DNA of 63,804 nucleotides from a bacterium. GTDB lineage: Bacteria > Sysuimicrobiota > Sysuimicrobiia > Sysuimicrobiales > Segetimicrobiaceae. The stretch's first letter is position 1. Each line of letters begins with the position of its first letter. Made by a program: the position numbers and the translations under genes. Of this stretch, positions 17,238-50,986 are shown piece by piece. Under the pieces are notes generated by a model, which was not told where the DNA came from, did not search any database, and saw nothing but the letters and a program-made list of their open reading frames with translations. The stretch is from positions 1-63,804 of the forward strand of contig DATEGA010000227.1 of the NCBI GenBank assembly GCA_035280345.1, in the 5' to 3' direction.

Positions 17238-17623
17238 TTGACGACCCCCTTGGCTTTCCCCAAGCCTACGGGAGCCCGGAAGTCACGGCATCCTGGAGTC
17301 CCTGTAAAGGAGTAGGAATTCTTTTCAGGCAGGTGATGTACTGACCCAAAAACCATGGGACGATTAACTACGATCCGGATGCAATCCGTGGGAAACGGCC
17401 CCAGCAGCCACCGGAAACAGGATCGCGGCGCGCGCGTGCCGGGCACGACGCACCGGCCGCCTGACTGTGCGCCGTTTTGCGACTCGCTTTCTCGGTCGAC
17501 GTGACACGGCATCAGCCCCAGAAAAGAGACGGCAGTTCCCGCCGGGGCGGATTTCGCTGGACCGGGATTGCCAACCCGCGGACTCGAGAGTCTAGCCGAA
17601 CGCGGACTAACCTCTTCGTGAGA

Positions 17624-18310: not shown

Positions 18311-18364
18311 GTGCGCTGTTGCGCTCCTCGAAAACCGGCGATGGAGCACGGTCGTGCACATCGC

Positions 18365-18395
18365 GTGACGGGCCGGGACGACCCCGGCCCGTCAC
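18365..18395 (-). terminator. 13-bp perfect hairpin between the flp stop and the response-regulator start
   Basis: GTGACGGGCCGGG-acgac-CCCGGCCCGTCAC. No U-tract, so it may be a terminator, an attenuator or a processing site. Confidence 0.45.
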
Positions 18396-18404
18396 GGTTG
18401 ATGC

Positions 18405-18599
18405 TTACGGCGGGTTCTGACCGGCCATCCAAGAACTGATCTTGGAGATCGCGCTGCTCAACACGCCCTGCAGCGCGAACGCGGCCACCAGCAGAAAAAG
18501 CACTACGCCGAGGATCAAGAGCACGTACTCGACCGTACCTTGTCCGCGTTCGTCCCTGTTGAGTTTGTTCATCAACCACGCCTGTGCGAACGTAAACAC
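18405..18599 (-). CDS. flp: Flp-family type IVb pilin
   Basis: GTG at 18599 lies 7 nt after GGAGGTGA. Product begins MFTFAQAWLMNKLNRDERGQG/TVEYVLLILGVVLFLL, which carries the Flp G/xxxEY processing motif and a hydrophobic helix. Confidence 0.7.
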   Translation of the reverse strand: MFTFAQAWLMNKLNRDERGQGTVEYVLLILGVVLFLLVAAFALQGVLSSAISKISSWMAGQNPP

Positions 18600-18647
18600 T
18601 TGTCGTCTCACCTCCCCCACCCGTGTCCTGACGACTGCGACCTCATG

Positions 18648-18721
18648 CCGTAAGCGTACACATCGAGGTCGCCCACGATAACTACCTAGCGAGGGTAGTC
18701 CTTGGGTAGGCATCTTGTCCG
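18648..18721. repeat. copy 1 of a ~74-nt imperfect direct repeat upstream of flp
   Basis: CCGTAAGCGTAC...GGGTAGTCCTTGGGTAGG...TGTCCG. About two-thirds identical to 18854..18928 by hand alignment. Confidence 0.55.
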
Positions 18722-18853
18722 CCTGAATGTCAACGTCATCGCCGATGACACACGACGCAAGATTAAGATAGCCGCCCGTGAAGACCGGCAAACCAATACC
18801 TGTCGCAAGGCCAACGTCAAGGGCTCGCCGAGTGGCAGTATTGCGCCTTAGGG

Positions 18854-18928
18854 CCTTAAGCGTACGAGTCGCGAGCTACGACAAATAACCGCCTGGCGCG
18901 GGTAGGCCTGGGGTAGGTGGCGTGTCCG
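18854..18928. repeat. copy 2 of the ~74-nt imperfect direct repeat
   Basis: CCTTAAGCGTAC...GGGTAGGCCTGGGGTAGG...TGTCCG, 206 nt from copy 1. Confidence 0.55.
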
Positions 18929-19166
18929 TTCGAGGAGTTGCGATACCGTCCCCAGGGGAACGCTGGCTGTCCGTAGTTAGCGGTGCGAGCGCGGACTTTT
19001 GTGGCCCCGAAGGGCGGCCGGACTGGCCCGACGAACCGGTCAGCAAGCTGGTGGCCGAGGGGTGACAGCGACTTCCGGATGCGCCCTCCATCTCGAACCG
19101 ATCGACATCGCCAAGCGGAACGCCAGAATTCGGTTCCCGGGGCTCGCGCCCGCATAGCAATCAACG

Positions 19167-19430
19167 ATGACAGGCATTTCGACGAGTGAGCAGTTGTTCG
19201 AGACGCTTCAGCGCCTCGTCGAGGCCTGGTGCGACCGGCGATGTCTGCGGGCGCTGCGGCATGTGCTGGCAGGCTACCCTCTGCCGTCGCCGCACACAGA
19301 CGGTTGGGGTGCCCTTTATGAGGCCCTTCGCCACGTGCGGGCTTCCGACCGCGACGAACTCACCGACCAAGAAGTGGAGACAGTCGACGATCTCATCGTC
19401 GCCGTCGGCGAACGGCTGTATCGGCGTTAG
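19167..19430 (+). CDS. hypothetical small helical protein (87 aa)
   Basis: ORF 19167..19430. Protein-like composition but no obvious SD. Lower-G+C region. Confidence 0.4.
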   Translation: MTGISTSEQLFETLQRLVEAWCDRRCLRALRHVLAGYPLPSPHTDGWGALYEALRHVRASDRDELTDQEVETVDDLIVAVGERLYRR

Positions 19431-19488
19431 AGCAGACGGTGCGGATGGCTGAAACCCGGACCTTGAAAGAGTCGCCAGGGAGGCGTCC

Positions 19489-20091
19489 ATGAAGTCGTCG
19501 CCGGACCTGCCCGCGATCGTCACATCGGCTGCGGCACAACGGAATCTGCGGCCTCGGGCCGACCTCCGCGAACCCGGCTGGACGTTCTGGGAATTGCGCA
19601 ACCTCAATATGCAGCGCGTGGTCGGCCTCGTGAACGAGCCTCGGCCGTTCGCGGACGCGCATGACCTGGATGCGGAAATCCGAGGTGTGGTTTTCCGGTA
19701 CTTTAAACCGGCCTGGTGGCGCGGGATGGCGTACGGGATCGTAGCGGACGTTCCCTCGATCACCCTCAGCCTCGATGATCTGAAGGTGACGGTCGACATC
19801 TACAACAATGCGAAGGGAACGTCGCAATGGTTGGTTCTCGTCAGCGATGACTCGGGCACGGCCGTCGGCGTGCACACATGGTTGGAATCGTACCTGAGTC
19901 CCGTGTACCGCAACATCCTGCAGGCGCTGTCGGACGCGGGGTACCGGATCGCGAGTGTTCGGAGGGAGAAAGACGGGTTGATGAAGTTCCTTACCGGTGT
20001 GGCGGACGCGGAAGCGGCGATCAGCAGTTTTGGCACCAGACGCGCCCGCTTCCCGGAGTTTCGGAACCCCTCGGGACCGACGAAGCAGTAG
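19489..20091 (+). CDS. hypothetical protein (200 aa)
   Basis: ORF 19489..20091. ATG lies 6 nt after GGGAGG. No family recognised. Confidence 0.55.
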   Translation: MKSSPDLPAIVTSAAAQRNLRPRADLREPGWTFWELRNLNMQRVVGLVNEPRPFADAHDLDAEIRGVVFRYFKPAWWRGMAYGIVADVPSITLSLDDLKVTVDIYNNAKGTSQWLVLVSDDSGTAVGVHTWLESYLSPVYRNILQALSDAGYRIASVRREKDGLMKFLTGVADAEAAISSFGTRRARFPEFRNPSGPTKQ

Positions 20092-20182
20092 AATCCGTCG
20101 CCGCATCTGGGTCGACCATCGATTGGCGCCGCGTCTATCGTTTTCTTCGGTACGACCTCGACCTTGGCTGTACGGGCGCCTT

Positions 20183-20210
20183 CACCGCACCCCCCGAAGA
20201 GGGTGCGGTG
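20183..20210. terminator. 10-bp hairpin between convergent genes
   Basis: CACCGCACCC-cccgaaga-GGGTGCGGTG. No U-tract. Confidence 0.35.
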
Positions 20211-20232
20211 ATGTCCGGCACGCGAGATTCCG

Positions 20233-22129
20233 CTACCGGATCAGCCCGAGCGCTCGCCAATACGGCACGCTCGCGGTGATGGCGATCAGAACCAACGCGG
20301 TCAGCAAGGCGCCGACGCGGAGTCCGTCACGGTTCGTGAACATCTCGCCTCTCGTGCCATCGCTCATGAGAATGTAAAAATCGCTGAGGTTGGGCAACAG
20401 CCACGCATTGCCGATCGTGAGGACGATAAAGCCGACGAGCCAGGGTGACAGCCCCAACTGCGCGGACACGGGAACGAAAGCGAGGATCAACAGAAAGTTT
20501 GAGGGGACGCGGGGGAGCACGAGACGGCAGGCCGCCACGAAGAGCCCGAGGAGCGCGACCATCGCGGCCGGCTGCCGCGCAAGGTGGGCAATGGGTGCAA
20601 AACTCCCGAACGATCCATCGGTCGATACCGACGGTGTGAAACACCGCCCCCGAACCAACGAGGAGCCCAAAGAGGATGAGGAAACTCCACTGCATGCCGC
20701 TGCGAAGGGTAGCTTGGTCCACGACTCGTCCAGCCAGCACAATGACGAACGCCAATGTCGCGAACCAAGCCGGATCGATACGGAGAACGGGCTCGAGCAG
20801 CATCCCGGCAAGTAAGCACGTCGCCGCCGCGATCGTCACGATCTCCTGTCGCGAAAGGGCGCCCAGGACGCGCTGCTGCCTTCTCAGCGCCTCCGGCGTA
20901 ACCAAAGCCGCTCGCTCAGGACGAAAAACCACCGACAGGAATGCAGGCACCCCGACAAAGACAAGGAGCCCGACCGGCGCGGCCCCTACCAGCCAACTGA
21001 GCCAGGTGATCCCGGCCCGTTCGGACGCCGGCAGCTGGCCGAGCAGAAAGAAGTTCGTCGCCAACGCCGTGAGAAACACGCTGCTGAAAATCGAATAGCC
21101 GACGAGCCCCGCAAATGCCAACCCGGCACTTGCTCGGCCCCTTTCGGTGTATCCAAGTGCCTGTGCCAACTCATGTGTGAGGCCCGCCGTGGAAAGCGAT
21201 CCGCCCGGACGCCAGCGGCACCAGCGGAGTCGTCAGCGCCCCACCGATCAAGAGCCCGAGCATTTGGCCGGTGTACGTAGCGGGCAGGACTCGGAGCAGC
21301 AGGAGTGTGAGCCTGAAGAAAAGACCCGAACGCGCCATCGCGGCGGCGAGGCCGACCGCCCCGAGCGCGAGCACCCACGTCGGGCTCGCAAATCCGGCAA
21401 AGGCGAGCGAGATCGGGACGAGCCCTGTGAAGCCCCACGCCGCTGTCATTGCCAGCGCGACGACGAAGTCGGGCGCCGGTTGGAACAGCCATCCGAGCGC
21501 CGCTCCCAACACAATCAGACTAACATGCCACCCCCTACGCTCAGGCCGCTCGGGGGAGCCGTAAGCCATAAGGCCATAGGCAGCGCAATGGGAACGGCGG
21601 CCGCGGCAGCCCGCCACGGGCGCGGCCGAATGCCCCGGGCTGCCGGCAAGGCGGCGGAAATCGTTTGCCGCGTCGCAGGCACCGCCCCTGCATGCTCACG
21701 GGAGCGGTCTTCAATCAATCGCGCGAGGGACGCCGCTACCCCCGCGCCCACCGCGGCACGTTCATGGAGCACTTGGTCGAACCGGTGGCGCGGGAGCGTC
21801 CAGGCTTCGACCTCGGTTACCGCGCGCGCCGAGGCGGTCCGACGCGCGAGGAGCAAGCCGAGCTCACCGAGGTACCCGGGGCCCTCCACAACGACGACCG
21901 CCCGCTCGCCATGCTCGGCCTTTACGATGATTTGGACCTTCCCGGCCTCGAGTAGATAGAGCGCGTCAGCCGCCGCTCCCTCGGAAAAGATCAGGGCACC
22001 GGCCTCCAGATGCACTTTCTCCAGCGCCCCTACCAGCCGTGCGATGTCGACGCGGTCGAGACCGCGAAAAAATGGCACACGGCGCAGCAGATTTTCCACA
22101 GGCTCGGAAGTGGAGGCGGCCGCGGCCAT
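20233..22129 (-). pseudogene. cyclic-nucleotide-binding domain fused to a DASS/SLC13-like anion permease, disrupted by about three frameshifts
   Basis: Four minus-strand ORF pieces (22129-21515, 21617-21171, 21169-20327, 20811-20233) read as one continuous protein if the frame is changed near 21530, 21195 and 20610. Confidence 0.7.
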
Positions 22130-22209
22130 GCATCGTTGTTCTCCGCACTTGTCTTGCGGCCCCCTTCATCAGTCTTGAAGGCGAGAAATGGCCTGATCAA
22201 GTCGGCGCC

Positions 22210-22395
22210 ATGTGGGAAGACTTCAAGGTCGGGATGGAGCACCTGACACGTTGGGAACGGGTCGCGGTCGTGACCAATATCGAATGGATCAGAAATACAG
22301 TGCGGCTGTTTGGTTTCCTGATGCCGGGCAGGGTGAAGATCTTTCTGACACCGGCCGCGGCTGAAGCGCGTGCTTGGATCACCGGGGCCGACTAG
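22210..22395 (+). CDS. C-terminal fragment of a SpoIIAA-like/STAS (DUF3478-like) protein
   Basis: MWEDFKVGMEHLTRWERVAVVTNIEWIRNTVRLFGFLMPGRVKIF matches only the C-terminal half of this family. The N-terminal half is missing or overlaps the pseudogene start. Confidence 0.4.
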   Translation: MWEDFKVGMEHLTRWERVAVVTNIEWIRNTVRLFGFLMPGRVKIFLTPAAAEARAWITGAD

Positions 22396-22455
22396 CTCAC
22401 GATCGCCCAACGAACGTTCCGGCGGTGCCGATGCGCGGCGCCATCGGGCAATTTG

Positions 22456-22511
22456 TCTTATTCCGAGCGTAACAGCAACTGGCGCCGATCCCATCGGATC
22501 GGCATCCGATG
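22456..22511. ncRNA. copy 1 of a conserved ~55-nt element with hairpin (candidate cis-regulatory RNA)
   Basis: TCTTATTCCGAGCGTAACAG...CATCGGAT-cggc-ATCCGATG. Similar to 38257..38311. Confidence 0.3.
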
Positions 22512-22725
22512 TTGACGCGCGGTAAGACGTTCAACCGCCCAGTCGGTTTTTAGTTTCGTTCGCCCCTAAACTACGTAGGGAACGCGCGAGACAACGGTAT
22601 GGCGACACTCGTAGTCGTGCCTGGCCGGCCACTCGGTCGTGTCCGGAGCGTATTTCGTCGGCCGGCGAACGCGGGCGGTTCAGACCCCGATGACATCGTC
22701 GAATCAAACTTGCTGAGGTACTGTA

Positions 22726-23673
22726 TTACTGACTGTGCATCATCCGCTGGTCATAATAATGGTCTCGCCAGATCAGCTTGTAGAGGCCAAGATAACGAGG
22801 AAGACGATTAAGCCCCGGGATAAACGGCACCAATATAAGCATCAACGTCAACGCGGCCATCGTGAGCCATACATACGCATCGCCATTCGGTGACGTCGAA
22901 TAGGGCGGAATCTGGTACCAAAATGTGTACAGCCACAACCACGCTTGCCCGGGATAACTGCCGGTTTCGTTCATCATGCCCCACTGGGTCCCGAGCAGGT
23001 GCGTCGCGGCCGCTTCGGAGTGCATCGGGTCTCCCTGAATGAACAGCAGCGGCCTCGTGTAATCGGTTTGATAGAAGTGCGAACTGGTGAGCAAGAAACC
23101 GTCCAACGCCCCGCTTTGACCCATGCTCAGAAGGTTTGCCATCAGGGTACCGACCGGGCCATAATCGCCCGCCGGAACGCTGACCGCGTGCCCCCGGATC
23201 AAGGCCTTGGTCAGCGCGCCCCGGTAAGCCTTTTCCCAATCCTGCTGCAGGTGGGGCGCCGCCTCGAACGCCGCGAGCGCGCGCGCGAGCCGGTCATCGT
23301 AGCGGGCCAGTTCATGCAACGGATCGATAACGAAATCGCGCGCGGTGTCGATCGGAGTCTGCACCCCCATCGCCTTCTGGAGGGAGACTGGACCGATGTA
23401 TTGTACCGACCCCGTTCCATGATTGTACGGTGGCCCGTAGGACGCGATGTCTCCGCCGCCGTCGAGGTCTCCGAGCGCCACTTGCAAGAACACAAGCGGC
23501 GTCTCGCCGGCCACCCGCCTGATCGTGAGCGGCGGCACGTCGGGAGACGAAAAGACGGCCGCCAGCACAAGAACCGCTACAATCACGGCGCCGGACGCCA
23601 CCAGCGCCTCCTTAACCAAATCGTATGGCGCCATGCGGACGCCGCGATAATATTCTTCGGGCCGCAGACTCAT
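22726..23673 (-). CDS. hypothetical membrane protein downstream of cytochrome b (no Cys, large extracytoplasmic domain)
   Basis: ATG at 23673 (MSLRPEEYY), 31 nt after the cytochrome b stop. One N-terminal TM segment, about 220 aa of soluble region, then C-terminal hydrophobic segments (WLWLYTFWYQIPPY, AYVWLTMAALTLMLILVPFIPG). Confidence 0.6.
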   Translation of the reverse strand: MSLRPEEYYRGVRMAPYDLVKEALVASGAVIVAVLVLAAVFSSPDVPPLTIRRVAGETPLVFLQVALGDLDGGGDIASYGPPYNHGTGSVQYIGPVSLQKAMGVQTPIDTARDFVIDPLHELARYDDRLARALAAFEAAPHLQQDWEKAYRGALTKALIRGHAVSVPAGDYGPVGTLMANLLSMGQSGALDGFLLTSSHFYQTDYTRPLLFIQGDPMHSEAAATHLLGTQWGMMNETGSYPGQAWLWLYTFWYQIPPYSTSPNGDAYVWLTMAALTLMLILVPFIPGLNRLPRYLGLYKLIWRDHYYDQRMMHSQ

Positions 23674-23704
23674 GATACGAACCCTGCGATGCCGTGCACT
23701 GGGG

Positions 23705-24340
23705 CTACGCCTTGGGCGCGGTGCGGCGCCCGGCGGGTGAGGGCGTCCGCTCCTCCGGCGGGTACGGCTTGACCACGCCGCGGAGCCGGACCTGCAACAC
23801 ATGCACGACGACCAGCAGCGCAACCAGCCACGGCAGAATGAAAACGTGAAAGCCGTACATCTGCCCGAAGTTGAGCAGGTTGAAGAATCCCCCAAGGCCG
23901 ACGGCGTTCATCGCGTCCTTGCCTTGCACGGCGATCCACTGTGAATCGAAGTTCTGCTGCGAGAGGTAGCCCGTGAATGCCGTGCCGATGGCCGCCACGA
24001 ACGTGACCGCTCCGGTCACCCACGTCATGGCGCGGCCGTCGCGCCAGGCGCCCATGAAGAACTGCGCCCAAAGATGGAGCACCATGCAGAAAAAGAACAC
24101 CTGCACGCTCCAGAAGTGGATGCTATTGAAGAAGCGCCCCGTTGCGGACCCGTGCCACCACTGAGGGCCGAACGCGGCCAGCACCGTGCCCGAGAGCACG
24201 AGCAGCACAAAGCTGACCAAGGTAAGAATGCCGAGCAGGTAGACGTACGAGTGGACGTATGCGGGCTGCTGATCCGGGAGCAGGCGCTCAGGCGGCAGCG
24301 CCCGCACGACCCGTTCGCGAATCTGCCGCGTGAGGCTCAT
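23705..24340 (-). CDS. cytochrome b, N-terminal (b6-like) four-helix subunit
   Basis: ORF 23705..24340. Heme-ligand His pairs: IHFW...VLHLW (13 residues between) and GFHVF...VVVHVL (14 residues between, b6-type spacing). Confidence 0.85.
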   Translation of the reverse strand: MSLTRQIRERVVRALPPERLLPDQQPAYVHSYVYLLGILTLVSFVLLVLSGTVLAAFGPQWWHGSATGRFFNSIHFWSVQVFFFCMVLHLWAQFFMGAWRDGRAMTWVTGAVTFVAAIGTAFTGYLSQQNFDSQWIAVQGKDAMNAVGLGGFFNLLNFGQMYGFHVFILPWLVALLVVVHVLQVRLRGVVKPYPPEERTPSPAGRRTAPKA

Positions 24341-24492
24341 AGGTCAAGCCTCTCTTTGCCGCCGCGCGCTCGCGGGAACGGCAGCGCAATGGCGAGGATG
24401 AAGGCCACCACCATCGCGGCGATCACGACGAGATTCGGCACCGAGATCAGAAAAATCGAAAAGTGCAGGTATGTTGCCGGGCTGCTCAGCAT
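24337..24492 (-). CDS. 51-aa single-TM protein, translationally coupled to cytochrome b
   Basis: ATG at 24492 follows GGGAGGTGG. The stop overlaps the cytochrome b ATG (ATGA). Product MLSSPATYLHFSIFLISVPNLVVIAAMVVAFILAIALPFP... Confidence 0.55.
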   Translation of the reverse strand: MLSSPATYLHFSIFLISVPNLVVIAAMVVAFILAIALPFPRARGGKERLDL

Positions 24493-24710
24493 TGCAGCCA
24501 CCTCCCTGCGCGGGGCCGCGATCGCTCGAGCCTTCACTCCCGTGCAATGAGTTCCTCTCCGGCGCAAGGCGTTGGGAACGCCTAGGAGGGCCTGCCGGTT
24601 AAAGGAAGCACCCGCCCATCGAGCCGACGGCAGCCAACGCGGCGAGCGTCCGTCGAACGACGAGAGGACGACAAAGCTACCGGTAGCCAATAATAGGATC
24701 GGGGGTCAAC

Positions 24711-30715: not shown

Positions 30716-33124
30716 TCACCTCGCGTGTGGCTTACGAAACCGATCCAGCACATGTTCCGCTATCCTCGATGGCGCGATCATCACGACGTGATCGCCGATC
30801 TCCAGCCGGGCATCGCCCTTCGGGACGAAGAGCACGTTTCCACGGCGGATGGCCACCAGCAGGATGCCTTTTTCGAGGCCGAGGTCACGCACGAATTTCC
30901 CCTCGACCGCCGACCCGCTGGTGACCGTGGGCTCTAACACCACCGAGTTCCGCGGCGATTGAGACAGCAGAGCTTCGATCGCGACATCCCGAGGCGCGGT
31001 CTCGTCGCTTGCCGTAGGACGCACCGGCGGCGGCTGGTCCATGCCAACCGCGTCGACGATCGTCTCCGCGTCCTCGGCCGGCACGAGGATGGCGAGCCGG
31101 TCGCCTTTCTGCAGTCGGGTGTCTCCGGTCGGGACGACGCTCGTTCCGTCTCGACGGATCGCGAGCAACAACGCGGCGGGCGGCCAAGGGATGTCGCGGA
31201 CCCGCTGTCCGGCAGGCGCTTGGTCGCGCGTCAGCTGCAGATCGATCACACGGTAACCGCGCAGGATCGCGGGCCTCGGGGCCGTACCCGCGGCAGGCGC
31301 CACAGCCTGCCGCCGTTGCTCGACTTGCGCGACCCCGCTCTCGAGCCGTTCGTTGTAGGCGCGGAGCACGTCACGGTGGGTGACCCATCCGATGACGCGC
31401 CGGGCGTCCGGATCGAGAACCGGCAATCCCGAGGCGTCGTGGCGGACGAGCAGCCCGAGCGCCTGCTCGAGGCTTTGCCGGGGGCTCAAGACCGGCGTCT
31501 CCTTGGCGAGATCACGGGCCGTGGCGTCCAACGCATTGTCGCGCATCGCCTGTTCAACCTGACGCGCGGTAACAGTTCCCTCAAACGCCGCCCGTTCGTC
31601 CACAACCGGCAGGGCATCCCAACCTTCGTCCGTGAAGCGAGTGATCATCTCATTCAGCGCCACATCCTCAGCGAGGGGTAGCGGCACCGGCTGCATGGCG
31701 TCTTCCACCATGAGCACTTCCATCAAATTGGCCGCGCGCCCGCGGCGGATGTCGATGCCACGCCGCCTGAGCTTGAGGGTATAGATGCTCTCGCGCGTGA
31801 GGACAGTGCTCAGTCCCGTGGCCAGCACGACGGCGAACATCAGCGGCAGGATAATCCGATAATCGCCCGTGAGCTCGAAAATGATGAGCACCGACGTGAT
31901 CGGCGCCTGAGCCGCCGCGGCAAACACCGCGCCCATGCCGACGAGCCCGTAGGCGCCGGCCGGGCCGACGATCCCCGGCAGCAGATGCTGGAGGAACATG
32001 CCATAAGCGGTTCCCAACATCGCCCCCATGAACAGAGAGGGCGCGAATACCCCGCCCGAGCCTCCGATGCCGATGGTCAGGCTCGTCGCGGCGATCTTGC
32101 CGATCAGGAGCATCAGGAGAAACACGAGACCGTAGCCGCCCCGAATGGCCCCCTCGAGAACGGGATACCCGACCCCGTACATCTGTGGCAGCGCCAGCAA
32201 CAGCGCCCCAAGAACAACGCCGCCCACCGCTGGCCGCAGCCACTCGGGCCCCTTCCAGAGGCGGTCGAGAAGGTCTTCAGTGCCGTAGAGAACCCGCACA
32301 AACGTAAGCCCGACCGCCGTGGCGAGAACCCCGAGCCCCGCGTACAAGAGGTACTCCCACAGCGAGGAAAGGGCAAAAGCCGGCAGCTCGAGGAAGGGAT
32401 GCGACCCAAAGGCCGCCCGTCCCATGATGGCGGCGAGCACCGAGGCGAGGACGACGACACCGAACGATTCCACCTCGAAGTCCCGCAAGATGAGCTCCAG
32501 TCCAAAGAACACGCCGGCGATGGGCGCGTTGAACGTGGCTGAGATGCCCCCGGCCGCGCCGCACGCCACCAAAAGTCGCAGCCGCGATTCGGGAATCCGG
32601 ACCCACTGACCGAGGGTCGAACCGAGCGCCGATCCGATCTGCACGATCGGCCCCTCGCGGCCGACCGACCCGCCGGACCCGATGCAGAGCGCGGAGGCGA
32701 GAGACTTGATCACCGCGACCTGCGGCCGGATCCGGCCGCCGTGTTCGGCGACCGCGAGCATGACCTCCGGGACCCCGTGCCCGCGCGCCTCGCGGGCGAA
32801 CCGGTCGATGAGGATCCCGTAGATGAGGCCGCCGGCAACCGGCGCCAGCACGACGAACCAGATGCCGAGATGCGGCACCAGCGGATTGGGGACACGGCCC
32901 GCCGCGCTGTAGTCATCGTGGCCGGAGAAGAATCGGGTGAAGCCCAAGATGAGGTAGCGGAACACCACGGCGCCTGCACCGGCGCCCGCGCCGACGGCGA
33001 TCGCGAGCACGTACAATCCGTTGGGGCTGCCCCGCAGCCACTGGTACGCGCGCGTCAGCGGTTCCGCGGGGATCCAAAGAGTCGGCCAGAGCCGTCCCCG
33101 CGCAGCGTTCGGTTGACGGTTCAT
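30716..33124 (-). CDS. ClC-family chloride channel/antiporter with a CBS pair and two TrkA_C (RCK_C) domains
   Basis: ORF 30716..33124. GSGGSVGREGP and GGSGGVFAPS selectivity motifs. C-terminal CBS region and two RCK_C-like modules (GDRLAILV, GDHVVMIA). Confidence 0.85.
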   Translation of the reverse strand: MNRQPNAARGRLWPTLWIPAEPLTRAYQWLRGSPNGLYVLAIAVGAGAGAGAVVFRYLILGFTRFFSGHDDYSAAGRVPNPLVPHLGIWFVVLAPVAGGLIYGILIDRFAREARGHGVPEVMLAVAEHGGRIRPQVAVIKSLASALCIGSGGSVGREGPIVQIGSALGSTLGQWVRIPESRLRLLVACGAAGGISATFNAPIAGVFFGLELILRDFEVESFGVVVLASVLAAIMGRAAFGSHPFLELPAFALSSLWEYLLYAGLGVLATAVGLTFVRVLYGTEDLLDRLWKGPEWLRPAVGGVVLGALLLALPQMYGVGYPVLEGAIRGGYGLVFLLMLLIGKIAATSLTIGIGGSGGVFAPSLFMGAMLGTAYGMFLQHLLPGIVGPAGAYGLVGMGAVFAAAAQAPITSVLIIFELTGDYRIILPLMFAVVLATGLSTVLTRESIYTLKLRRRGIDIRRGRAANLMEVLMVEDAMQPVPLPLAEDVALNEMITRFTDEGWDALPVVDERAAFEGTVTARQVEQAMRDNALDATARDLAKETPVLSPRQSLEQALGLLVRHDASGLPVLDPDARRVIGWVTHRDVLRAYNERLESGVAQVEQRRQAVAPAAGTAPRPAILRGYRVIDLQLTRDQAPAGQRVRDIPWPPAALLLAIRRDGTSVVPTGDTRLQKGDRLAILVPAEDAETIVDAVGMDQPPPVRPTASDETAPRDVAIEALLSQSPRNSVVLEPTVTSGSAVEGKFVRDLGLEKGILLVAIRRGNVLFVPKGDARLEIGDHVVMIAPSRIAEHVLDRFRKPHAR

Positions 33125-33717
33125 GAACCGGCCAGTCCCTCCAGGAGCAGATCAAGGGCCCGCCGGATGTTAGGCCACCGGAACCCTGCCGGATCGAGCC
33201 CCGCGTGAAGGGCCAGGCCGTCCCCGAGGGCCAGCAACACGGCGGCGAAGGCGTTGGCCGGGATGTCGACGAGTTCGCCGGCCGCGATCGCCGCGCCGAT
33301 CCAGCCGCGCAGCACTTCCCGGCGGTGCCGGACGCTCGTCGAAAATCGCAGCCGGACCACTCTTTCCGTCAACATGGCGGCCCACAGGTCCGCCCGGACC
33401 TGCACACGCGCCGGCTCCTCCCCGCGCTCGAGCATCGCGCGGGTGAAGCGCCGAAGACGCTCGACATTGGAGATCGCCGTCGCCCCGAGCCGTTCCATGA
33501 TCTGATCCAGAAAGGCGGCGTCTTCCTCGAGCAGCGCGAGTAACAGGGCCTGTTTGCTATCGAAGTATCCGTAGAACGCGCCCTTGCTCAGGTCGGCCTC
33601 GGCGCAGACCTCGTCCACCGTCAGGTCGCCGAAGCCCTTGCGGGCCGCGCACCGCCAAGCCGCCTCGATGATGTGCTGGCGCCGTTCGGTGCGGACGGCC
33701 GCCGTGATGCGCGGCAT
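33121..33717 (-). CDS. TetR/AcrR-family transcriptional regulator
   Basis: ORF 33121..33717. HTH region TVDEVCAEADLSKGAFYGYFDSKQALL. The stop overlaps the ClC start (ATGA). Confidence 0.85.
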   Translation of the reverse strand: MPRITAAVRTERRQHIIEAAWRCAARKGFGDLTVDEVCAEADLSKGAFYGYFDSKQALLLALLEEDAAFLDQIMERLGATAISNVERLRRFTRAMLERGEEPARVQVRADLWAAMLTERVVRLRFSTSVRHRREVLRGWIGAAIAAGELVDIPANAFAAVLLALGDGLALHAGLDPAGFRWPNIRRALDLLLEGLAGS

Positions 33718-44321: not shown

Positions 44322-45665
44322 CTACACCTTGTATTTGGCGTAGATGGACTTAATCTGGTCCATCCCCCATGTGATCGAGCTTTCCAGACTGTCGCCGTGG
44401 CAGTACCGCGCCAGCATGTCCGGAACCACGAACGTCGATAGCACCTCGGACGCCGCCGCCGTGGCCGGGCCCGGATAGCCGAACACAAGCGCCACCTTGT
44501 CCCAGTCTTGTAACAGGCTGACTTTGGGGTCGCTCCCGAGTGCCGGCATGGGCTTCTTGTACCAGCCCTTGAGGTACGGCATGTTGTAGCCTTTGCTGGC
44601 GGTGAGCGAGAACTTGACGTCGCCTCCGTAGTGCTCGAGAAACGCCCGCGCCGCGGCCGTGTTCGGCGAGAACTTCCAGATCCCGAGGATCGCCGGATCC
44701 ACCACCGCCGCCCGCCGTGCGGAGCCCATCGGCTCATCGCCGGGGACCGCGACGTTGATCGAATCGTAGAGCTTCGGGTTGCTGTCCTGCACCGAGCGGA
44801 CCGCGGAGATCGCGTCGTGGATATAGAGGGCCACACCCGAGTCGAGATAGCGGTTATCCGACACGTTGTCCCAGGAGAAGACCTCCGACGTCATTCCCTC
44901 CGACCAGAGCGCCTTGCTGAACTTCATGGCTTCGCGAAGCGCCGGAGAGTCCCAGCGCAGGTGCGCGCCGCTTGGGTCGGTCTCTTCGACCCCGAACCCG
45001 TAGAAAACGGCGCGCCAGTTGTGGTTGGAGTCGTTACAGTGCGAAATGGCGAAGCCCGCCGGGTGGCCGTGCTGCTTGCCGATACGGGCGGCCTCCCGCA
45101 GGTTGTCCCACGTGGCCGGAGACTTGAGGCCGTACTCCTTCCAGAGGTCCGCGCGCCACTCGATCGGCTGCGGAATATAGAACTCCGGGATGGCGTACCA
45201 TTGACCGCCGATCGTGGCGACGTTCTTGGCCATCGGGATCCAGCCGCCGGCCGCCATCCCCAGTTTGTCGCAGATGTCCGAGACGTTGACCATGTGCTTG
45301 TAGTAGAGGGTCGTCTGAATCTGCCCGTTCATCTGAAAGATGTCGTGCCCGGCGCCGGCGGCCAGCTCGGATGCGATGCGCGCCGGAAGGTCATCGATGC
45401 TGATGTGATCCACGCGGACGGTTACGCCGTTGGTTTTGCCCCAATCCGCCGCGTAGGTGTCAAACGCCGTATCGTACGCCGGGACGAAGTGGCTCCAGGT
45501 CAGAATGCGCAGCGACGTCCCGCGGATCTGGGCCGGCGCCGCCCCGGCCTCCCAGGGTGTGATCATCCGTGCCGCCGCCGCCCCGGCGACTCCCGCCCCG
45601 GCCGCCGTCAGTAATCGACGCCGGGTCAGGGCCTGACTGGACTTTCGAGCAGGCCGTTCTGCCAT
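44322..45665 (-). CDS. extracellular sugar-binding protein (ABC SBP family 1) with Tat-type signal
   Basis: ATG at 45665 follows GGGAGGTG. TRRRLLTAAGAGVAGAAAA twin-arginine signal. Confidence 0.8.
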   Translation of the reverse strand: MAERPARKSSQALTRRRLLTAAGAGVAGAAAARMITPWEAGAAPAQIRGTSLRILTWSHFVPAYDTAFDTYAADWGKTNGVTVRVDHISIDDLPARIASELAAGAGHDIFQMNGQIQTTLYYKHMVNVSDICDKLGMAAGGWIPMAKNVATIGGQWYAIPEFYIPQPIEWRADLWKEYGLKSPATWDNLREAARIGKQHGHPAGFAISHCNDSNHNWRAVFYGFGVEETDPSGAHLRWDSPALREAMKFSKALWSEGMTSEVFSWDNVSDNRYLDSGVALYIHDAISAVRSVQDSNPKLYDSINVAVPGDEPMGSARRAAVVDPAILGIWKFSPNTAAARAFLEHYGGDVKFSLTASKGYNMPYLKGWYKKPMPALGSDPKVSLLQDWDKVALVFGYPGPATAAASEVLSTFVVPDMLARYCHGDSLESSITWGMDQIKSIYAKYKV

Positions 45666-45804
45666 AAGCCGCACCTCCCGTACGCACGTTGTCCGCGAGG
45701 CTCGAAACATCGGTCGCGTCGGAGTTCCAGGCTCGGGCGCGCTGCCCCGGCTCGCTGCAACAAGCTGCGTGCATGCTCTACTCTAGCCAAATCCGGTCGG
45801 GCTG

Positions 45805-45848
45805 GCGTTACACAGAGGTAAACGCCGCAGAAATTTTGAGGAAACTCG
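45805..45848 (-). promoter_or_regulatory. recurrent upstream motif copy (faces the sugar SBP gene)
   Basis: GCGTTAC-acagag-GTAAACGC-cgcag-AAATTTT-gaGGAAAC. TAGAGT lies 20 nt beyond the proximal half-site. Confidence 0.5.
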
Positions 45849-46106
45849 CGGGGACGGCGGAACCTTGCCGGGCGGGCGCCCTCGGGATGCACGGGCTCCC
45901 GTACGTTCACTCGGCACCGTCCGGGCATCGCCCTCCCCTTGGCGTACCGGCACAGCCTGATGCTCGCCCATTTTCAGCCGGACGCGGCGGACAATCTCCG
46001 CGCCCGCAGCGTGTACACTCAGCTGCGCTTGACCGAACGGGTGTCCTCTGTCTCGTGTTCACGGCCCCGACACCTTCGCGCGTCGCGCGGCGAGCACATC
46101 GCAGAC

Positions 46107-46211
46107 CTACCTGCCGAACAAGTGCCCGGTGAGCTCCAGCGCGAGCACCACGAGCCCCAGCGCGCTTGCGCTCAGCAAGACCAGCATCCACAGATCTCGT
46201 TGGGGCGACAT
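46107..46211 (-). CDS. 34-codon hydrophobic micro-ORF (paralog 1)
   Basis: Not in the ORF track (too short). Translated by hand: MSPQRDLWMLVLLSASALGLVVLALELTGHLFGR. Paralogous to 49054..49158. Confidence 0.35.
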   Translation of the reverse strand: MSPQRDLWMLVLLSASALGLVVLALELTGHLFGR

Positions 46212-46348
46212 CTTCCGAGGCGGCCTCATCCCTGTGGAGTCGGATTATCGTCGTCCAGGCTCGTGCGCACCACCATTGGCCCCCGACGTCACTCGTGTGA
46301 AGGTTTCGCTCCCACGGTAGCAGGCGCGCGGTCGCGTTGACGTTGCGG

Positions 46349-46377
46349 GACCGCCGCCGCGCCGCGCGGCGGCGGTC
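46349..46377 (-). terminator. 13-bp perfect hairpin downstream of the blue-copper gene
   Basis: GACCGCCGCCGCG-ccg-CGCGGCGGCGGTC. No U-tract. Confidence 0.45.
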
Positions 46378-46430
46378 GATGAGGACGGCGGCCGGCACTC
46401 AGCCACCCTCCCGGCACCCTTCCTGGCGCG

Positions 46431-46982
46431 TTACTGAGCGACAAGATGGACGATCTTCGCGGCCGGCGCCGGTGTGATGCTCGGCTTCTTCGCCGTCGCG
46501 GAGACGACAAGTTTGTCCCACATGCCGAGCGTTGCGTGCCCCGGCACACCGCAGACGAACTCGTACGTTCCCGGCCTGCTCGCCACGAACGAGAACGTCG
46601 TCGTCGTCCCCCGCGGCAGGCCCTTCGCGAGGTGCTTCGTGGCAGCGCCTGGAAACGCCGGCGTCTCACTCGCCGGCGCCGCCGGCGGAGTCGACGTGTA
46701 CGGCAGCACGATCAGACTGTGGGCCAAGGCGCCGTCATTCTTGAACGTGACCACGACCTTCCAGCCCACGGGAACCGTAACCGTCATCCCGCCCCGCGCA
46801 TAACCGTCGAGGTTATAACCGTTGTCCGCCGGCGTCTGGTCCGCAACGATCGTGACGTGAACGGTATGTGCCGCCGCGAGCGCGGGAGCTCCCGCGAGCA
46901 GCGCCATGGCCGCGACGACAAGTCCAATAGCTACTCCTGTGCGGGCCCCTCCGAACAAATCGGTCGCTGCCTTCCTGCGCAT
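46431..46982 (-). CDS. type-1 blue-copper protein, rusticyanin/sulfocyanin-like
   Basis: ATG at 46982 follows GGAGGTG. TM/signal anchor. Ligand pattern ALAHS ... FVCGVPGHATLGMW (Cys, His+5, Met+10). Confidence 0.75.
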   Translation of the reverse strand: MRRKAATDLFGGARTGVAIGLVVAAMALLAGAPALAAAHTVHVTIVADQTPADNGYNLDGYARGGMTVTVPVGWKVVVTFKNDGALAHSLIVLPYTSTPPAAPASETPAFPGAATKHLAKGLPRGTTTTFSFVASRPGTYEFVCGVPGHATLGMWDKLVVSATAKKPSITPAPAAKIVHLVAQ

Positions 46983-47033
46983 CTCAACTGCACCTCCACG
47001 CTCATTTTTTGGACTCACACGGAGTGGCGGCCG

Positions 47034-47525
47034 CTACTCCACGACGACGGTTCCCCTCAGGCTCTCCTCTGCCCGGCCCGGGTCGTGGCTGGCCATCTCG
47101 AAGCGGCCCCTGGCCCTCGGTGTGAACCAGACGACAGCTCTCGTGCCCGGGGCCAGGTGGACTTTGAACAACGTGGTGGTGCCGATCTCGGCTCGGCCGG
47201 GTAACGCGATGTCGATCTCTCCCATGTCCTTGAAGTACGTGTGAGACATGACATACGCGTTCCAATCCGCCGGGGAGACCTTCGGCGCAGCGTAGACCTG
47301 GAATTCGTGGTCGCGAGTCCCCTCGTTGTCGAGGATGAGCCGGACGGGCGTTCCGGCCCGTAGCGTGATGGTCTTCGATCCGAAAGCGTAGTCGTGCAGG
47401 ACAAGCGTGACTGCCTGGGCCCGAACCGCGCCGACGGCCGGGAGGGCCGCCGTCGCGATCAGGAGCGCGGTGGCGAGAGGAACGATCCGCCACATCCGGT
47501 TCGTCGGCCGAGCCCGGCTACGCAT
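47034..47525 (-). CDS. cupredoxin-fold protein lacking the copper Cys
   Basis: ORF 47034..47546. Start ambiguous (47546, 47525 or 47495). Signal peptide. HEF...RFEMASHDPG stands where FxCxxPGH would be expected. Confidence 0.6.
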   Translation of the reverse strand: MRSRARPTNRMWRIVPLATALLIATAALPAVGAVRAQAVTLVLHDYAFGSKTITLRAGTPVRLILDNEGTRDHEFQVYAAPKVSPADWNAYVMSHTYFKDMGEIDIALPGRAEIGTTTLFKVHLAPGTRAVVWFTPRARGRFEMASHDPGRAEESLRGTVVVE

Positions 47526-48225
47526 CGAGCCGGCCGGATGGCGCACCGTCGTTTCCCGATTCCTCCGCGGCCAACCCTTTGGGAGCCGTATACGCGATCG
47601 CGCCGACCTCGGCCCCCGTCACGACGATGTTTTCTCCCTGGATCTTGAACCGAAAGTACCGGGCGCCGCGGGGCGCAGGGCCCGAGATGACGTCGCCGGG
47701 GTCTCCCGGATAGGCCGGGTCGTAGATGCTGAAGTGGCATGGGCAGGCCATCAGCGGGTGCTGCTCCCACCGCGGCGGAACGAAGCCCCCGTACCCGGTC
47801 GTCACATTGTGCCATGTCGGGATGAAATTGAAGATACAGCCCAAGTGCGGACAGATCCGGCTGAACAGCACGATGTCCGTCTCTCCGATGTAACCGTCAT
47901 AGCCTTGGGTGTTGGCGAACCGGACTTTCCGGGGCAGGCGGATGGCGACCCCCGGAATATTCTCCGCCTCGTAGCCCGCCTGGTCGTACTGCACGAATTT
48001 CTGCACGTAAGTGAAGTAGAAATAGTCCCAGGGCTTCGCGAGCGCGCCCGTCGTCCCGACGATCTGGGCCCCACCCTCCGGAGTGTCCGACTGTGTCAAC
48101 GGAATCCCATACGGGTGCTCGTTGGGCTTGATGTAGCGAAGCAGCGGCGACAAGATTGCTAGAAGCCCCCCGATCACCGGGATGCCGACGAGGATCTGAA
48201 ACAGGCGCCGTCTGTTGAACCTCAT
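47518..48225 (-). CDS. Rieske [2Fe-2S] protein with Tat signal
   Basis: ORF 47518..48225. RRRLFQ twin-arginine signal plus TM segment. Box I CPHLGC and box II CPCHFS are separated by 30 residues. Confidence 0.85.
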   Translation of the reverse strand: MRFNRRRLFQILVGIPVIGGLLAILSPLLRYIKPNEHPYGIPLTQSDTPEGGAQIVGTTGALAKPWDYFYFTYVQKFVQYDQAGYEAENIPGVAIRLPRKVRFANTQGYDGYIGETDIVLFSRICPHLGCIFNFIPTWHNVTTGYGGFVPPRWEQHPLMACPCHFSIYDPAYPGDPGDVISGPAPRGARYFRFKIQGENIVVTGAEVGAIAYTAPKGLAAEESGNDGAPSGRLDA

Positions 48226-48641
48226 GACATGCTCATCGGCGGCCCGCCTTGGAAGGGCGGCGTAGTCACCGGCCTCCTCTTCCAGCGAGCCAAGAGGAGA
48301 CGCGCGGCGAGGCGCATGAAGGGATCGGCGGAGCCGAGCTCCACCCCTACGCGGCTTGTCATCTCGCCCTCCTCGAGGCGGCTTCGATCGATGAGAATCG
48401 CGACGGCCTCGGCGAACTGGCGCATTTCGGATGACCGCCGGACATGTGGGAGCAGGGAAATTGCTTTCTGGACGCTCGCGTCGAGCAGCTTTAAGCGGGT
48501 CAGTCGAGAATTGCGCCGCCTTGCGCTGCGACGGCCGAGTTTTCCCGCGCCTGACGATGGGGTATCTTCAAACGCAAAGAGCCGGGCCGCAACTCGGCGA
48601 GTCCTGTGGACGTCCCGCGTCTTACCGTTGAAATCATTCAT
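48222..48641 (-). CDS. hypothetical Arg-rich helical protein, first gene of the Rieske operon
   Basis: ATG at 48641 follows GGAGG. The stop overlaps the Rieske ATG (ATGA). Confidence 0.5.
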   Translation of the reverse strand: MNDFNGKTRDVHRTRRVAARLFAFEDTPSSGAGKLGRRSARRRNSRLTRLKLLDASVQKAISLLPHVRRSSEMRQFAEAVAILIDRSRLEEGEMTSRVGVELGSADPFMRLAARLLLARWKRRPVTTPPFQGGPPMSMS

Positions 48642-48907
48642 CTCAGAGCCTCCATCAGAAAGAATGCGCCCGAAAGACTGATCTCCCGCACAAAACGCTC
48701 GGGGAGCCCGGGGCCAGGGCAACGCTCAAACCCAAAGCCGTTGGCGGCGAGCAGCGCCGGCGTCGACCCATCGTTACCTCGCCCGACAACGGATTCTGGC
48801 TCAAGCGTGCAGCGCGAGTCGTCCGGCGACTTCCGGGGCGCCAACTCGCTGCACCGAGACACGGTACGGTCCTCCAAGATTCACCTTAGCAACGCCGGGC
48901 CTTTCTA

Positions 48908-48950
48908 GCGTTGCAGATGCGTAAACGCTGGAACAACTTCGGGTAAATTT
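48908..48950 (-). promoter_or_regulatory. recurrent upstream motif copy (faces the Rieske operon)
   Basis: GCGTTGC-agatgc-GTAAACGC-tggaa-CAACTT-cGGGTAAAT. TAAGGT lies 20 nt beyond the proximal half-site. Confidence 0.5.
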
Positions 48951-49053
48951 GCCCGCAAGAGTAGCAGTGCGCCTACCCGACGCCGAGACGGCTTGTCGAC
49001 ACATCTTCGGCGACCTGATGATCGCGATCGGGGAGCTCCATCGCGTGCACTCG

Positions 49054-49158
49054 TTACAATCGCCCCAGCAGGTGTCCGCTGAGGGTCGGCGCCAGGATCA
49101 CAAGGGCCAGTACGCTGGCGCCGAGCAGGACGATCCCACAGATCGCTTCGTGGCGCAT
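49054..49158 (-). CDS. 34-codon hydrophobic micro-ORF (paralog 2)
   Basis: Translated by hand: MRHEAICGIVLLGASVLALVILAPTLSGHLLGRL. Same length as paralog 1 and shares the C-terminal GHL(F/L)GR. Confidence 0.35.
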   Translation of the reverse strand: MRHEAICGIVLLGASVLALVILAPTLSGHLLGRL

Positions 49159-49198
49159 TTGGCTCGGCTATCTTCCGCGAGCACACAGCGCCTCGGCA

Positions 49199-49498
49199 TC
49201 AGGGCCTCTGATCACAGTCGTAGATGCGCAGGCGATCACTGTTGTTGAGCGGGTCGCTCGCCTGGAGGCAGGCCTCGGCCGACGAAAAGACCTGTTTCGT
49301 CCGAGACCACCGGCCGGACGTCGACGACCGGACGTAGAGCACCCAGGGACTTGCAGAGGGCGCCGCCGTTGGTCTCACCGCGGAAGACGCCGGGGAGCGA
49401 GCCGGGCGATGAGCGGTCATCACAGTCGTTCGTACGGTGAGAATCAGCGCGACGACGCAGACAAGCGCAGCCGCGGCCGTCAATACTGCCCGCAACAT
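49199..49498 (-). CDS. hypothetical small membrane-anchored protein (99 aa)
   Basis: ATG at 49498 follows GGAG, within ORF 49199..49606. N-terminal TM segment MLRAVLTAAAALVCVVALILTV. Confidence 0.4.
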   Translation of the reverse strand: MLRAVLTAAAALVCVVALILTVRTTVMTAHRPARSPASSAVRPTAAPSASPWVLYVRSSTSGRWSRTKQVFSSAEACLQASDPLNNSDRLRIYDCDQRP

Positions 49499-49978: not shown

Positions 49979-50743
49979 TCAGATGTCGTCGCGGAGGCGG
50001 TAGCCTACGCCGCGGACCGTCTGGATGAGGTGCGCCGATTCGGGATTCCCCTCGAGCCGCTGCCGCACCCGCGAGACGTGAACGTCGAGCGTCTTTTCTT
50101 CTCCAAAGAAGTCCTCACCCCAGACCACGGTGAGGAGCTCTTGCCGCGGAACCACCTCCCCGGCACGCTGGGCGAGGAGCCGCAGGAGGTCGAACTCCTT
50201 ACGCGGCAGCGCGACGGGACGCCCGCGCAGGGTGACCGTGTGCCGGGCCGGGTCGATCGTAAGGGGCCCAACCTCCAGCCGGCCGGCGATTTCGGTGCCA
50301 CGACTGCGCCGGATGGCCGCGCGCACCCGCGCGATGAACTCGCGGGGTCCAAACGGTTTCGCGAGGTAGTCGTCCGCGCCCACCTCGAGGCCGACGACTT
50401 TATCAACCTCGTCGCCGCGGGCGCTGACCATGAGGATGGGGACGCCGGCCACACGCCGGAGCCGGCGGGTCACTTCGAGGCCGTCGACATCGGGCAGCAT
50501 GATGTCGAGGACAATCAGCGCGGGCCGCTCGGCGGCTGCGGCCTCCAGCGCGGCTGTGCCGGTTTCCGCCGCTACTACCCGGTACCCCTCGCGCTCAAGA
50601 AAGAACCGCATCGAGGTCAGCATCGGAACCTCGTCGTCCACGACCAGAACCGTCGGCCGACACCCTGCCCCTTCGTGGCCGGCCGTGGCGGACGCCGGCG
50701 TCGCTTCGGTTGAGTCCGGGTGATCGCGGAAGCTGCGGGCCAT
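49979..50743 (-). CDS. OmpR/PhoB-family response regulator
   Basis: ATG at 50743 follows GAGGAA. Receiver VLVVDDE...DIMLPDVDG. Winged helix LPRKEFDLLRLL...DVHVSRVRQRLE. Confidence 0.9.
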   Translation of the reverse strand: MARSFRDHPDSTEATPASATAGHEGAGCRPTVLVVDDEVPMLTSMRFFLEREGYRVVAAETGTAALEAAAAERPALIVLDIMLPDVDGLEVTRRLRRVAGVPILMVSARGDEVDKVVGLEVGADDYLAKPFGPREFIARVRAAIRRSRGTEIAGRLEVGPLTIDPARHTVTLRGRPVALPRKEFDLLRLLAQRAGEVVPRQELLTVVWGEDFFGEEKTLDVHVSRVRQRLEGNPESAHLIQTVRGVGYRLRDDI

Positions 50744-50986
50744 TTGAGAGTTCCTCACCCACGACTACGAAACATTCGTGCTAAAAGTTTTTCCCTGAGT
50801 GCGCCGGGGCAGTTGCGGTCCGCCAGCGCGGGCCGTTCGCTCGCTTCCGGTGCAGACCAACGACCTCGGAGTGCCGAGAAAGATCCCGCTCCTCGACGGC
50901 GCGGCGACGCCCCGGCCCCTCGCTTGACTGAGGTCCCCGCGGGCCATGCGCGCGTCCCACGTTACTCTGAAGGCGGTTCGCTTCAG

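Follow-up and report, generated by a model that had tools for sequence, protein, structure and literature searches.

What does a Rieske iron-sulfur protein do in an operon that carries two cupredoxins and no cytochrome b? The question is raised by positions 46431-48641 of contig DATEGA010000227.1 (GenBank assembly GCA_035280345.1), a stretch of 63,804 nucleotides from a bacterium of the Segetimicrobiaceae (Sysuimicrobiota) that was analysed over its full length and is called the window here. On its minus strand four open reading frames (ORFs) can be read from the sequence, encoding ORF-A, a Rieske protein, a cysteine-less (Cys-less) cupredoxin and a SoxE-type cupredoxin. A first-pass annotation of this DNA had considered the operon as a possible self-contained, high-potential electron-transfer module of the Fe(II)-oxidation type. 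We favour another reading, with moderate confidence: the operon supplies an alternative, exchangeable Rieske subunit for the Rieske/cytochrome b complex of the lineage, along with extracytoplasmic cupredoxins by which the electron would travel on. It is probably an optional electron-exit route and not a new kind of respiratory machine. A self-contained module is not indicated, because the unusual spacer of the Rieske protein is family-wide, 12 related loci are linked to cytochrome b, and the protein is a nested paralogue of the linked copies from which no diagnostic residue separates it.

The Rieske protein and its family

The motifs and matches of the Rieske protein support a respiratory type. 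Both cluster-binding boxes (C-x-H-x-G-C and C-x-C-H) are present, including the two disulfide cysteines; CPHLGC occupies residues 125-130 and CPCHFS residues 161-166, with exactly 30 residues between them, as the first-pass annotation had counted, and CPHLGC and CPCH (161-164) are invariant in the family alignment. The serine and tyrosine after box II, which accompany higher-potential Rieske clusters, are kept (CPCHFSIY). The twin-arginine translocation (Tat) signal proposed earlier finds its counterpart in the region NRRRLF (family consensus DRRxLLK) and in an N-terminal anchor that AlphaFold predicts as a helix at residues 5-32, followed by a beta-rich soluble domain (42 homologues in the alignment; predicted local distance difference test, pLDDT, 78.9).

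Foldseek searches with this model returned AioB, actinobacterial QcrA, PetC, the Thermus Rieske protein, SoxF and Aquifex bc1 subunits, interleaved with one another. By sequence the best match in the PDB is the Aquifex bc1 Rieske protein (6kls, E 2e-5), followed in order by b6f PetC, the Thermus Rieske protein, SoxF and AioB. Four hidden Markov models (HMMs) of respiratory Rieske proteins were tried (PF00355, TIGR01416, NF045928 and NF050121). The protein scores 16.1 bits against a threshold of 20.3 for PF00355, and it stays below the NCBIfam cut-offs as well, with 32.1 against 250 for PetC, 28.5 against 97.4 for TIGR01416 and 23 against 275 for QcrA; the SoxL2 model (TIGR03171) matches weakly, far below its cut-off. 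The curated thresholds are missed because the 30-residue insert splits the match. When a dioxygenase or arsenite-oxidase affiliation was checked, the protein proved not to be of the dioxygenase type and its AioB score fell below the cut-off.

More than 390 homologues, all from metagenomes or metagenome-assembled genomes (MAGs), make up the family. The species-representative genomes that contain it are MAGs assigned by label to Bacillota or Firmicutes; a branch further off is found in Armatimonadota. Box II always reads CPCH[F/L]SIY, and the 30-residue spacer occurs in 118 of the 121 sequences examined; the "atypical" look is therefore a family trait, and the earlier claim of an atypical Rieske protein working without cytochrome b fails both on this count and on the 12 related loci in which the family is linked to cytochrome b. 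In these 12 fetched loci, the canonical home of the family, a seven-gene operon (Table 1) carries the Rieske gene directly upstream of cytochrome b, the family members being 53-87% identical, and cytochrome c maturation genes often lie upstream of the operon.

The window Rieske protein falls, in a neighbour-joining tree, into a derived clade nested within these operon-linked sequences, and the tree supports its reading as a recent orphan paralogue of the operon Rieske protein. An adjacent cytochrome b and every other gene of the canonical operon are absent nearby in all 11 loci of the orphan clade (the window, L001/L002, L008, L019, L020, L021, L023, L024, L025 and L028). The first-pass statement that genes for cytochrome b, cytochrome c and an oxidase are not adjacent holds for the window, where none lies nearby. 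In one genome, MAG SMAG_U6314, the two kinds of Rieske gene occur together (L007 canonical, L008 orphan).

Orphan and canonical Rieske proteins are 65-74% identical, and 82% in the cluster-binding subdomain. No column of the alignment is diagnostic of either group, and the anchor and hinge residues P16, P27, R30, K33 and P34 are invariant throughout the family. The lack of diagnostic columns, with the conservation of the cluster subdomain and hinge, argues that the orphan protein would still fit the operon-type cytochrome b. Extra Rieske genes outside bc clusters have been described as exchangeable subunits in Rubrivivax gelatinosus and others (PMC6256036). Nested paralogy, shared residues and this precedent together support an exchangeable isoform.

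A second way of accounting for the missing cytochrome b is a stand-alone short chain in which the anchored Rieske protein and the cupredoxins would serve some extracytoplasmic oxidoreductase, in the manner of AioB. This would agree with the absence of cytochrome b within 23 kb of the operon and from the immediate neighbourhood of every orphan gene, with the arsenite oxidase small subunits among the top Foldseek matches and with the AioB-type names given by JGI. We nevertheless judge it unlikely: in none of the 11 loci does the orphan gene have a molybdopterin or other catalytic subunit conserved beside it, the arsenite oxidase small subunit model TIGR02694 gives 32.3 bits against a cut-off of 95.65, and cytochrome b-linked copies are 65-74% identical to the protein and show no diagnostic difference from it. 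An identity as arsenite oxidase small subunit (AioB) was itself rejected on the TIGR02694 score and the absence of an AioA/molybdopterin gene from the window and the related loci.

The JGI name "arsenite oxidase small subunit" is attached to P0002, P0008, P0020, P0023 and other members of the Rieske family. It is likely a misannotation, because the neighbourhoods of these genes are either cytochrome b operons or orphan genes without AioA.

The cytochrome b-like gene closest to the operon, at 23705-24340, was considered as the missing partner and set aside: no Rieske gene is adjacent to its relatives in L026 and L027, and its family has more than 5000 members that always travel with a protein of about 315 residues, a very common two-gene cassette. 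With the cytochrome b proteins of the canonical operon it shares only about 20-25% identity. The window's own version of this cassette (22726-24690, minus strand) has genes for a 211-residue protein with a cytochrome b N-domain and for a partner of about 314 residues that has no family, with perhaps a small ORF upstream. Chloroflexi MAGs are among the sources of the more than 5000 close relatives of its cytochrome b, and the partner is the same, again with no adjacent Rieske gene, in the two loci checked.

The SoxE-type blue-copper protein

Family and ligands support the assignment of the last gene to the type-1 copper proteins of the sulfocyanin (SoxE) family. Its product passes the Pfam SoxE model (PF06525) with 74.1 bits (cut-off 21), and all four putative type-1 ligands are present: His88, lying within ALAHSL, and Cys144, His149 and Met154, which give the spacing Cys, His+5, Met+10 in FVCGVPGHATLGMW. 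They align with rusticyanin His85/Cys138/His143/Met148 and are invariant in 12 homologues, and sequence searches of the PDB return rusticyanin and auracyanin. The rusticyanin/sulfocyanin-like copper site described by the first-pass annotation is thus upheld. Equivalence to either protein, for which the annotation had named TIGR03094 and TIGR03095 as tests, is not, as neither equivalog model is reached (sulfocyanin, TIGR03094, 68.7 bits against 168.4; rusticyanin, TIGR03095, 30.1 against 146.7). Relatives form 1206 clusters at E up to 1e-3.

In the window and in L020 the SoxE-type gene is added to the module. Canonical operons, too, can have cupredoxin genes close by: L007 carries a SoxE homologue (L007:1189-1608) and L003 a Cupredoxin_1 gene. 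After the cupredoxin domain, SoxE-type proteins have a conserved C-terminal tail in common, VSxTAxxPSVTPAxAA (window 46431-46500, minus strand), and some homologues have lipoprotein-like N-termini. In L019, the closest relative (Rieske proteins 91% identical), the Cys-less cupredoxin is missing and a SoxE-type remnant follows directly after the Rieske stop codon (L019:6609-7147); it is truncated, lacks a signal peptide and is split over two frames, reflecting either gene decay or an assembly error. The window also encodes an AsmA/YhdP-family protein (10934-12673, plus strand), in a lineage whose relatives are labelled Bacillota. This protein hints at a two-membrane envelope, and hence at a periplasm where soluble cupredoxins could work.

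Reverse-running Rieske/cytochrome b complexes have a model in the petI system of Acidithiobacillus ferrooxidans. The operon might be an Fe(II)-oxidising or reverse-electron-flow module, in which the SoxE-type protein would take electrons from Fe(II) and the alternative Rieske protein would drive such a complex in reverse. The rusticyanin-like Cys/His/Met spacing and the membership of the SoxE family would suit such a module, as would the literature: sulfocyanin has been proposed as an iron oxidase in the acidophiles Ferroplasma and Sulfobacilli (PMC10427800), and two oppositely working bc1 complexes have been reported in A. ferrooxidans (PMC6256036). Still, we give this reading hardly any credence, as both equivalog scores are far too low, the SoxE-like family with its 1206 clusters is very broad, and the relatives come from ordinary soil (farmland and other) and groundwater metagenomes, whereas the literature link concerns acidophiles. 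The window, moreover, holds no outer-membrane cytochrome or other iron-oxidation gene, and the promoter of the operon is common to sugar and peptide uptake genes. The case for a role in Fe(II) oxidation would come down to family resemblance only.

A cupredoxin that has lost its type-1 site

The middle gene passes the Pfam model Cupredoxin_1 with 35.2 bits (cut-off 27), and its product has no cysteine at all. The first histidine ligand is kept (H73), and the positions of the Cys, His and Met ligands are taken by Ser, Arg and Leu. The first-pass annotation was right that the copper cysteine is absent and wrong in placing its loss at an alanine, since alignment with P0134, a relative from L028, puts the cysteine at the serine of MASHDPG. 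The AlphaFold model has a cupredoxin fold at moderate confidence (pLDDT 63.6). In Foldseek searches its best structural match is auracyanin, and AcoP, a Bacillus anthracis Cupredoxin_1 protein, CuA domains, CupA and FtrB are also found; a sequence search of the PDB gave insignificant matches only.

The family is small, with only 14 members among 5.8 billion proteins. P0134 retains the complete Cys-x4-His-x4-Met loop, MACHDPGHYERGM. In the other 13 the cysteine position is serine and none keeps the histidine, so that the His ligand position is kept in one of the 14 members and the Met position in five. Since P0134 keeps the loop, we read the family, from its alignment, as a decayed blue-copper protein, and the ancestral partner of the orphan Rieske protein was probably a genuine blue-copper carrier. 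What the family conserves lies elsewhere: H73, H123, H147, M93, M101, E103 and D105 are invariant, M144 is nearly so (V in one member), and a central insert is strongly conserved, with low confidence in the model. A new metal site or a docking surface on the protein is possible.

Comparison of gene neighbourhoods, as the first-pass annotation had proposed, shows that the module recurs. L020 has the same three redox genes in the same order, and the Rieske gene is followed by a member of the same cupredoxin family in the window, L001/L002, L020, L025 and L028. Four of the 14 members lie on a contig of the same size as one with a Rieske match; scans of metagenome contigs for further cupredoxin loci found none.

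Invariant histidines and methionines in a Cys-less protein also bring copper binding to mind, and the operon might serve copper handling or resistance, its cupredoxins binding or chaperoning copper in the manner of CopI, CupA or PCuAC and the Rieske gene being incidental. Further hints in this direction are a weak CopI match of the middle gene, the presence of CupA and FtrB among its fold matches, and the SCO1/SenC and thiol-disulfide genes that adjoin the Rieske-cupredoxin pair in L001/L002. We regard this reading as very unlikely. The CopI model (NF051440) has a cut-off of 280, against which the middle gene reaches 27.1 bits and the last gene 16.2, and the type-1 site of the last gene, of the electron-transfer kind, is complete. 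The gene constantly found with this cupredoxin family codes for a Rieske protein and not for a copper pump or regulator, and a copper-handling role does not explain this constancy.

ORF-A and the short ORF upstream

ORF-A encodes a basic protein without a transmembrane segment, and the first-pass label of an unknown protein stands, as no Pfam or NCBIfam match was found at E up to 1. A homologue occupies the same position in L019 (5651-6004), with 54% identity over 116 residues and the same ATGA overlap, and another lies beside tatA in L020 (411-809). ORF-A is probably a real cytoplasmic accessory protein, to judge by this conservation. Further upstream, the stop codon of a short ORF overlaps the start of ORF-A, again as ATGA. 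Its G+C content at third codon positions (GC3) is 0.72, tblastn against the related loci gave no match, and L019 and L023 have short unrelated ORFs at its place.

A promoter element shared with stress and uptake genes

The recurrent upstream motif reported by the first-pass annotation (48908-48950) is real and belongs to a longer element, AAATTTAC-N5-AAGTTG-N6-GTTTAC-N6-GCAACG, 20 nt, TAAGGT. It includes an 18-bp imperfect palindrome at 48909-48926 and the -10-like TAAGGT at 48883-48888. An exact search for the 43-nt motif of the first-pass annotation returned a self-match only; its recurrence was found with a degenerate core pattern. In general form the element consists of two upstream TTTAC/TTTCC-like boxes, the palindrome GTTTAC-N6-G[T/C]AACG, a gap of exactly 20 nt and a TAnnnT hexamer, and the 20-nt spacing is retained in most copies. 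The window has nine to ten copies, all of them within 40.3-59.5 kb and upstream of a gene, and none in its first 40 kb. Between 40 and 60 kb the element precedes nearly every transcription unit.

Behind the element are genes for a GH15 glycosidase, a sugar-binding protein, a peptide-binding protein, two universal stress proteins (Usp), a Cu_amine_oxidN1-domain protein and a small ORF, besides the Rieske operon. The sugar- and peptide-binding proteins are binding proteins of ATP-binding cassette (ABC) transporters. Ahead of the orphan Rieske gene, conservation of the element extends to five loci (the window, L019, L020, L021 and L023). A centre near -41.5 is the usual position of a class II activator site, and if TAnnnT is the -10 box the centre of the palindrome would lie there. 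Candidates for a protein that binds the palindrome are encoded in the window: a cNMP-binding protein (21515-22129) and an OmpR-type regulator (49979-50758). The sharing of the element with Usp and uptake genes places the operon in a putative regulon with stress and scavenging genes, which fits a conditionally used Rieske isoform.

Proposed function

On the reading we prefer, that of an exchangeable Rieske isoform with its own electron carriers, the promoter held in common with universal-stress-protein and nutrient-uptake genes would turn the operon on. The Rieske protein would be exported by the Tat pathway, held by its N-terminal helix and docked on a cytochrome b encoded elsewhere in the genome, where it would take one electron from quinol at the Qo site. 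It would then reduce the SoxE-type protein, which could relay the electron toward a terminal oxidase, replacing the canonical di-haem cytochrome c or working beside it. The Cys-less cupredoxin, its type-1 site lost, is more likely to be an adaptor, a docking subunit or a copper-handling partner than a redox carrier, and ORF-A would act as a conserved cytoplasmic accessory protein.

Several observations weigh against this proposal. About half of the orphan loci have no intact cupredoxin genes (missing or decayed in L008, L021, L023 and L024, a remnant in L019). The window, which is the whole 63.8-kb contig, lacks a canonical Rieske/cytochrome b operon; both Rieske types are found together in one MAG only; and neither a terminal oxidase nor a copper-maturation gene was found in the window. 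Finally, the orphan Rieske gene often adjoins genes for a TetR regulator and a CLC channel, with no obvious respiratory link. The absence of cupredoxins from about half of the orphan loci argues that the Rieske protein is independent of them; judged by gene neighbourhood, the cupredoxins are recurrent yet dispensable, accessory companions of this Rieske family.

The TetR gene and the gene for the CLC channel, which has CBS and TrkA_C domains, lie at 30716-33717 (minus strand) in the window, 14 kb from the Rieske gene. In five related loci, among them L001, L023, L025 and L028, the pair stands directly beside the orphan Rieske gene; the stop of the CLC gene and the start of the Rieske gene overlap in L025 and L028.

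The proposal can be carried further. The canonical operon, with its fusion of a cytochrome b N-domain to 2x[4Fe-4S] and its FlpD/MvhD-like protein, may have a connection to cytoplasmic iron-sulfur carriers. A low-potential branch to such carriers has been proposed for some anammox Rieske/cytochrome b complexes. We speculate that the parent complex could be a quinol oxidiser with a branch of this kind and that the orphan Rieske protein and the cupredoxins could form a switchable, copper-based high-potential exit that re-tunes the complex when the cell is stressed or starved, with the degenerate cupredoxin as a dedicated docking subunit; as a whole, this extension is quite improbable.

Relation to known systems and significance

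The closest parallels are orphan Rieske isoforms such as PetA2 of Rubrivivax gelatinosus and PetC2/PetC3 of cyanobacteria, which are likewise paralogues of the complex's own Rieske protein, encoded outside the cytochrome b operon and with anchor, hinge and cluster motifs kept; here the promoter suggests conditional expression. The orphan gene described here differs in its linkage to cupredoxins and a small cytoplasmic protein, in that exchange is proposed from sequence, and in its parent complex, which is of an undescribed type with a cytochrome b/4Fe-4S fusion and FlpD. For reviews of such isoforms, PMC6256036 cites Schneider and Schmidt (2005) and Ouchane et al. (2005).

Among archaea, the SoxM supercomplex of Sulfolobus (SoxF and SoxE) also has a respiratory Rieske protein encoded with a SoxE-family blue-copper protein, the presumed oxidase relay. 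The operon in the window differs in being bacterial, in having no oxidase or cytochrome b genes in the cluster and in scoring far below the cut-offs of TIGR03094 and TIGR03171. Plastocyanin with b6f and auracyanin with Alternative Complex III share the principle of a small type-1 copper acceptor downstream of a quinol-oxidising complex; here the cupredoxin subfamily is another one, with a physical linkage between its genes and the Rieske gene itself. With rusticyanin of Acidithiobacillus ferrooxidans the Cys-x4-His-x4-Met loop and the upstream histidine align, but the TIGR03095 score (30.1 against 146.7) and the lack of an acidophile context set the two apart, and a redox potential is not inferable from sequence.

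The lineage concerned is an uncultured one from soil, high in GC and listed under Bacillota in public MAGs, and the analysis describes part of its respiratory chain. Its Rieske/cytochrome b complex combines an unusual Rieske protein, with the 30-residue inter-box insert, and unusual extra subunits. A spare Rieske gene appears to have recruited copper proteins, and one cupredoxin family seems to be observed midway through the loss of its copper site. Both themes combined here are known ones: Rieske proteins that come in several isoforms, and cupredoxins that act as acceptors for quinol oxidoreductases. More unusual is the parent operon, which has FlpD and a cytochrome b/ferredoxin fusion and is located outside this window. 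If the isoform-swap model is true, the operon would be a compact case of respiratory remodelling through the exchange of a subunit and its carrier.

Gene calls and surrounding sequence

All four tightly packed minus-strand genes claimed by the first-pass annotation exist (Table 1). The stop of ORF-A overlaps the start of the Rieske gene as ATGA, the Rieske and Cys-less cupredoxin genes overlap by 8 nt, and a gap of 51 nt precedes the SoxE-type gene. GC3 is 0.76-0.84 in the three redox genes and 0.72 in ORF-A. The form of the Cys-less cupredoxin listed in Table 1 is the one present in the protein database.

Table 1. Positions of the operon genes, the upstream element and its copies in the window, and loci of the canonical operon
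Feature	Position	Strand	Remarks
ORF-A	48222-48641	-	ATG start at 48641; 139 residues
Rieske	47518-48225	-	235 residues; orphan [2Fe-2S] protein
Cys-less degenerate cupredoxin	47034-47525	-	Best start ATG 47525; 163 residues; with signal or anchor sequence
SoxE-family type-1 (blue) copper protein	46431-46982	-	Best start ATG 46982 behind GGAGG; 183 residues; signal or anchor sequence
Short ORF	48638-48862	-	Coding status uncertain; 74 residues; GTG start behind GGAGG
Promoter/operator element	48883-48950	-	Recurrent in the window and conserved in related loci
Element copies in the window	40350(-), 40419(+), 45823(-), 48926(-), 49738(-), 52733(-), 53646(-), 53815(+), 59433(+)		
Canonical operon	L005:6707-12148; also L003, L006, L007, L009-L016, L022		Order: di-haem cytochrome c; Rieske; cytochrome b (~390 residues); two small proteins; cytochrome b N-domain/2x[4Fe-4S] fusion; FlpD

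A scan of 45600-49300 for consensus sigma-70 promoters found none, and the two terminator-like sites in the same region both lie inside genes and are no more numerous than expected by chance. The roughly 600 bp on the 3' side of the operon (45830-46430) are without a convincing ORF, Rfam match or terminator-like site, and an Rfam search of the whole window gave no match. The GC content of the window is 0.65-0.71, except at 16000-24000, where it falls to 0.61-0.62.

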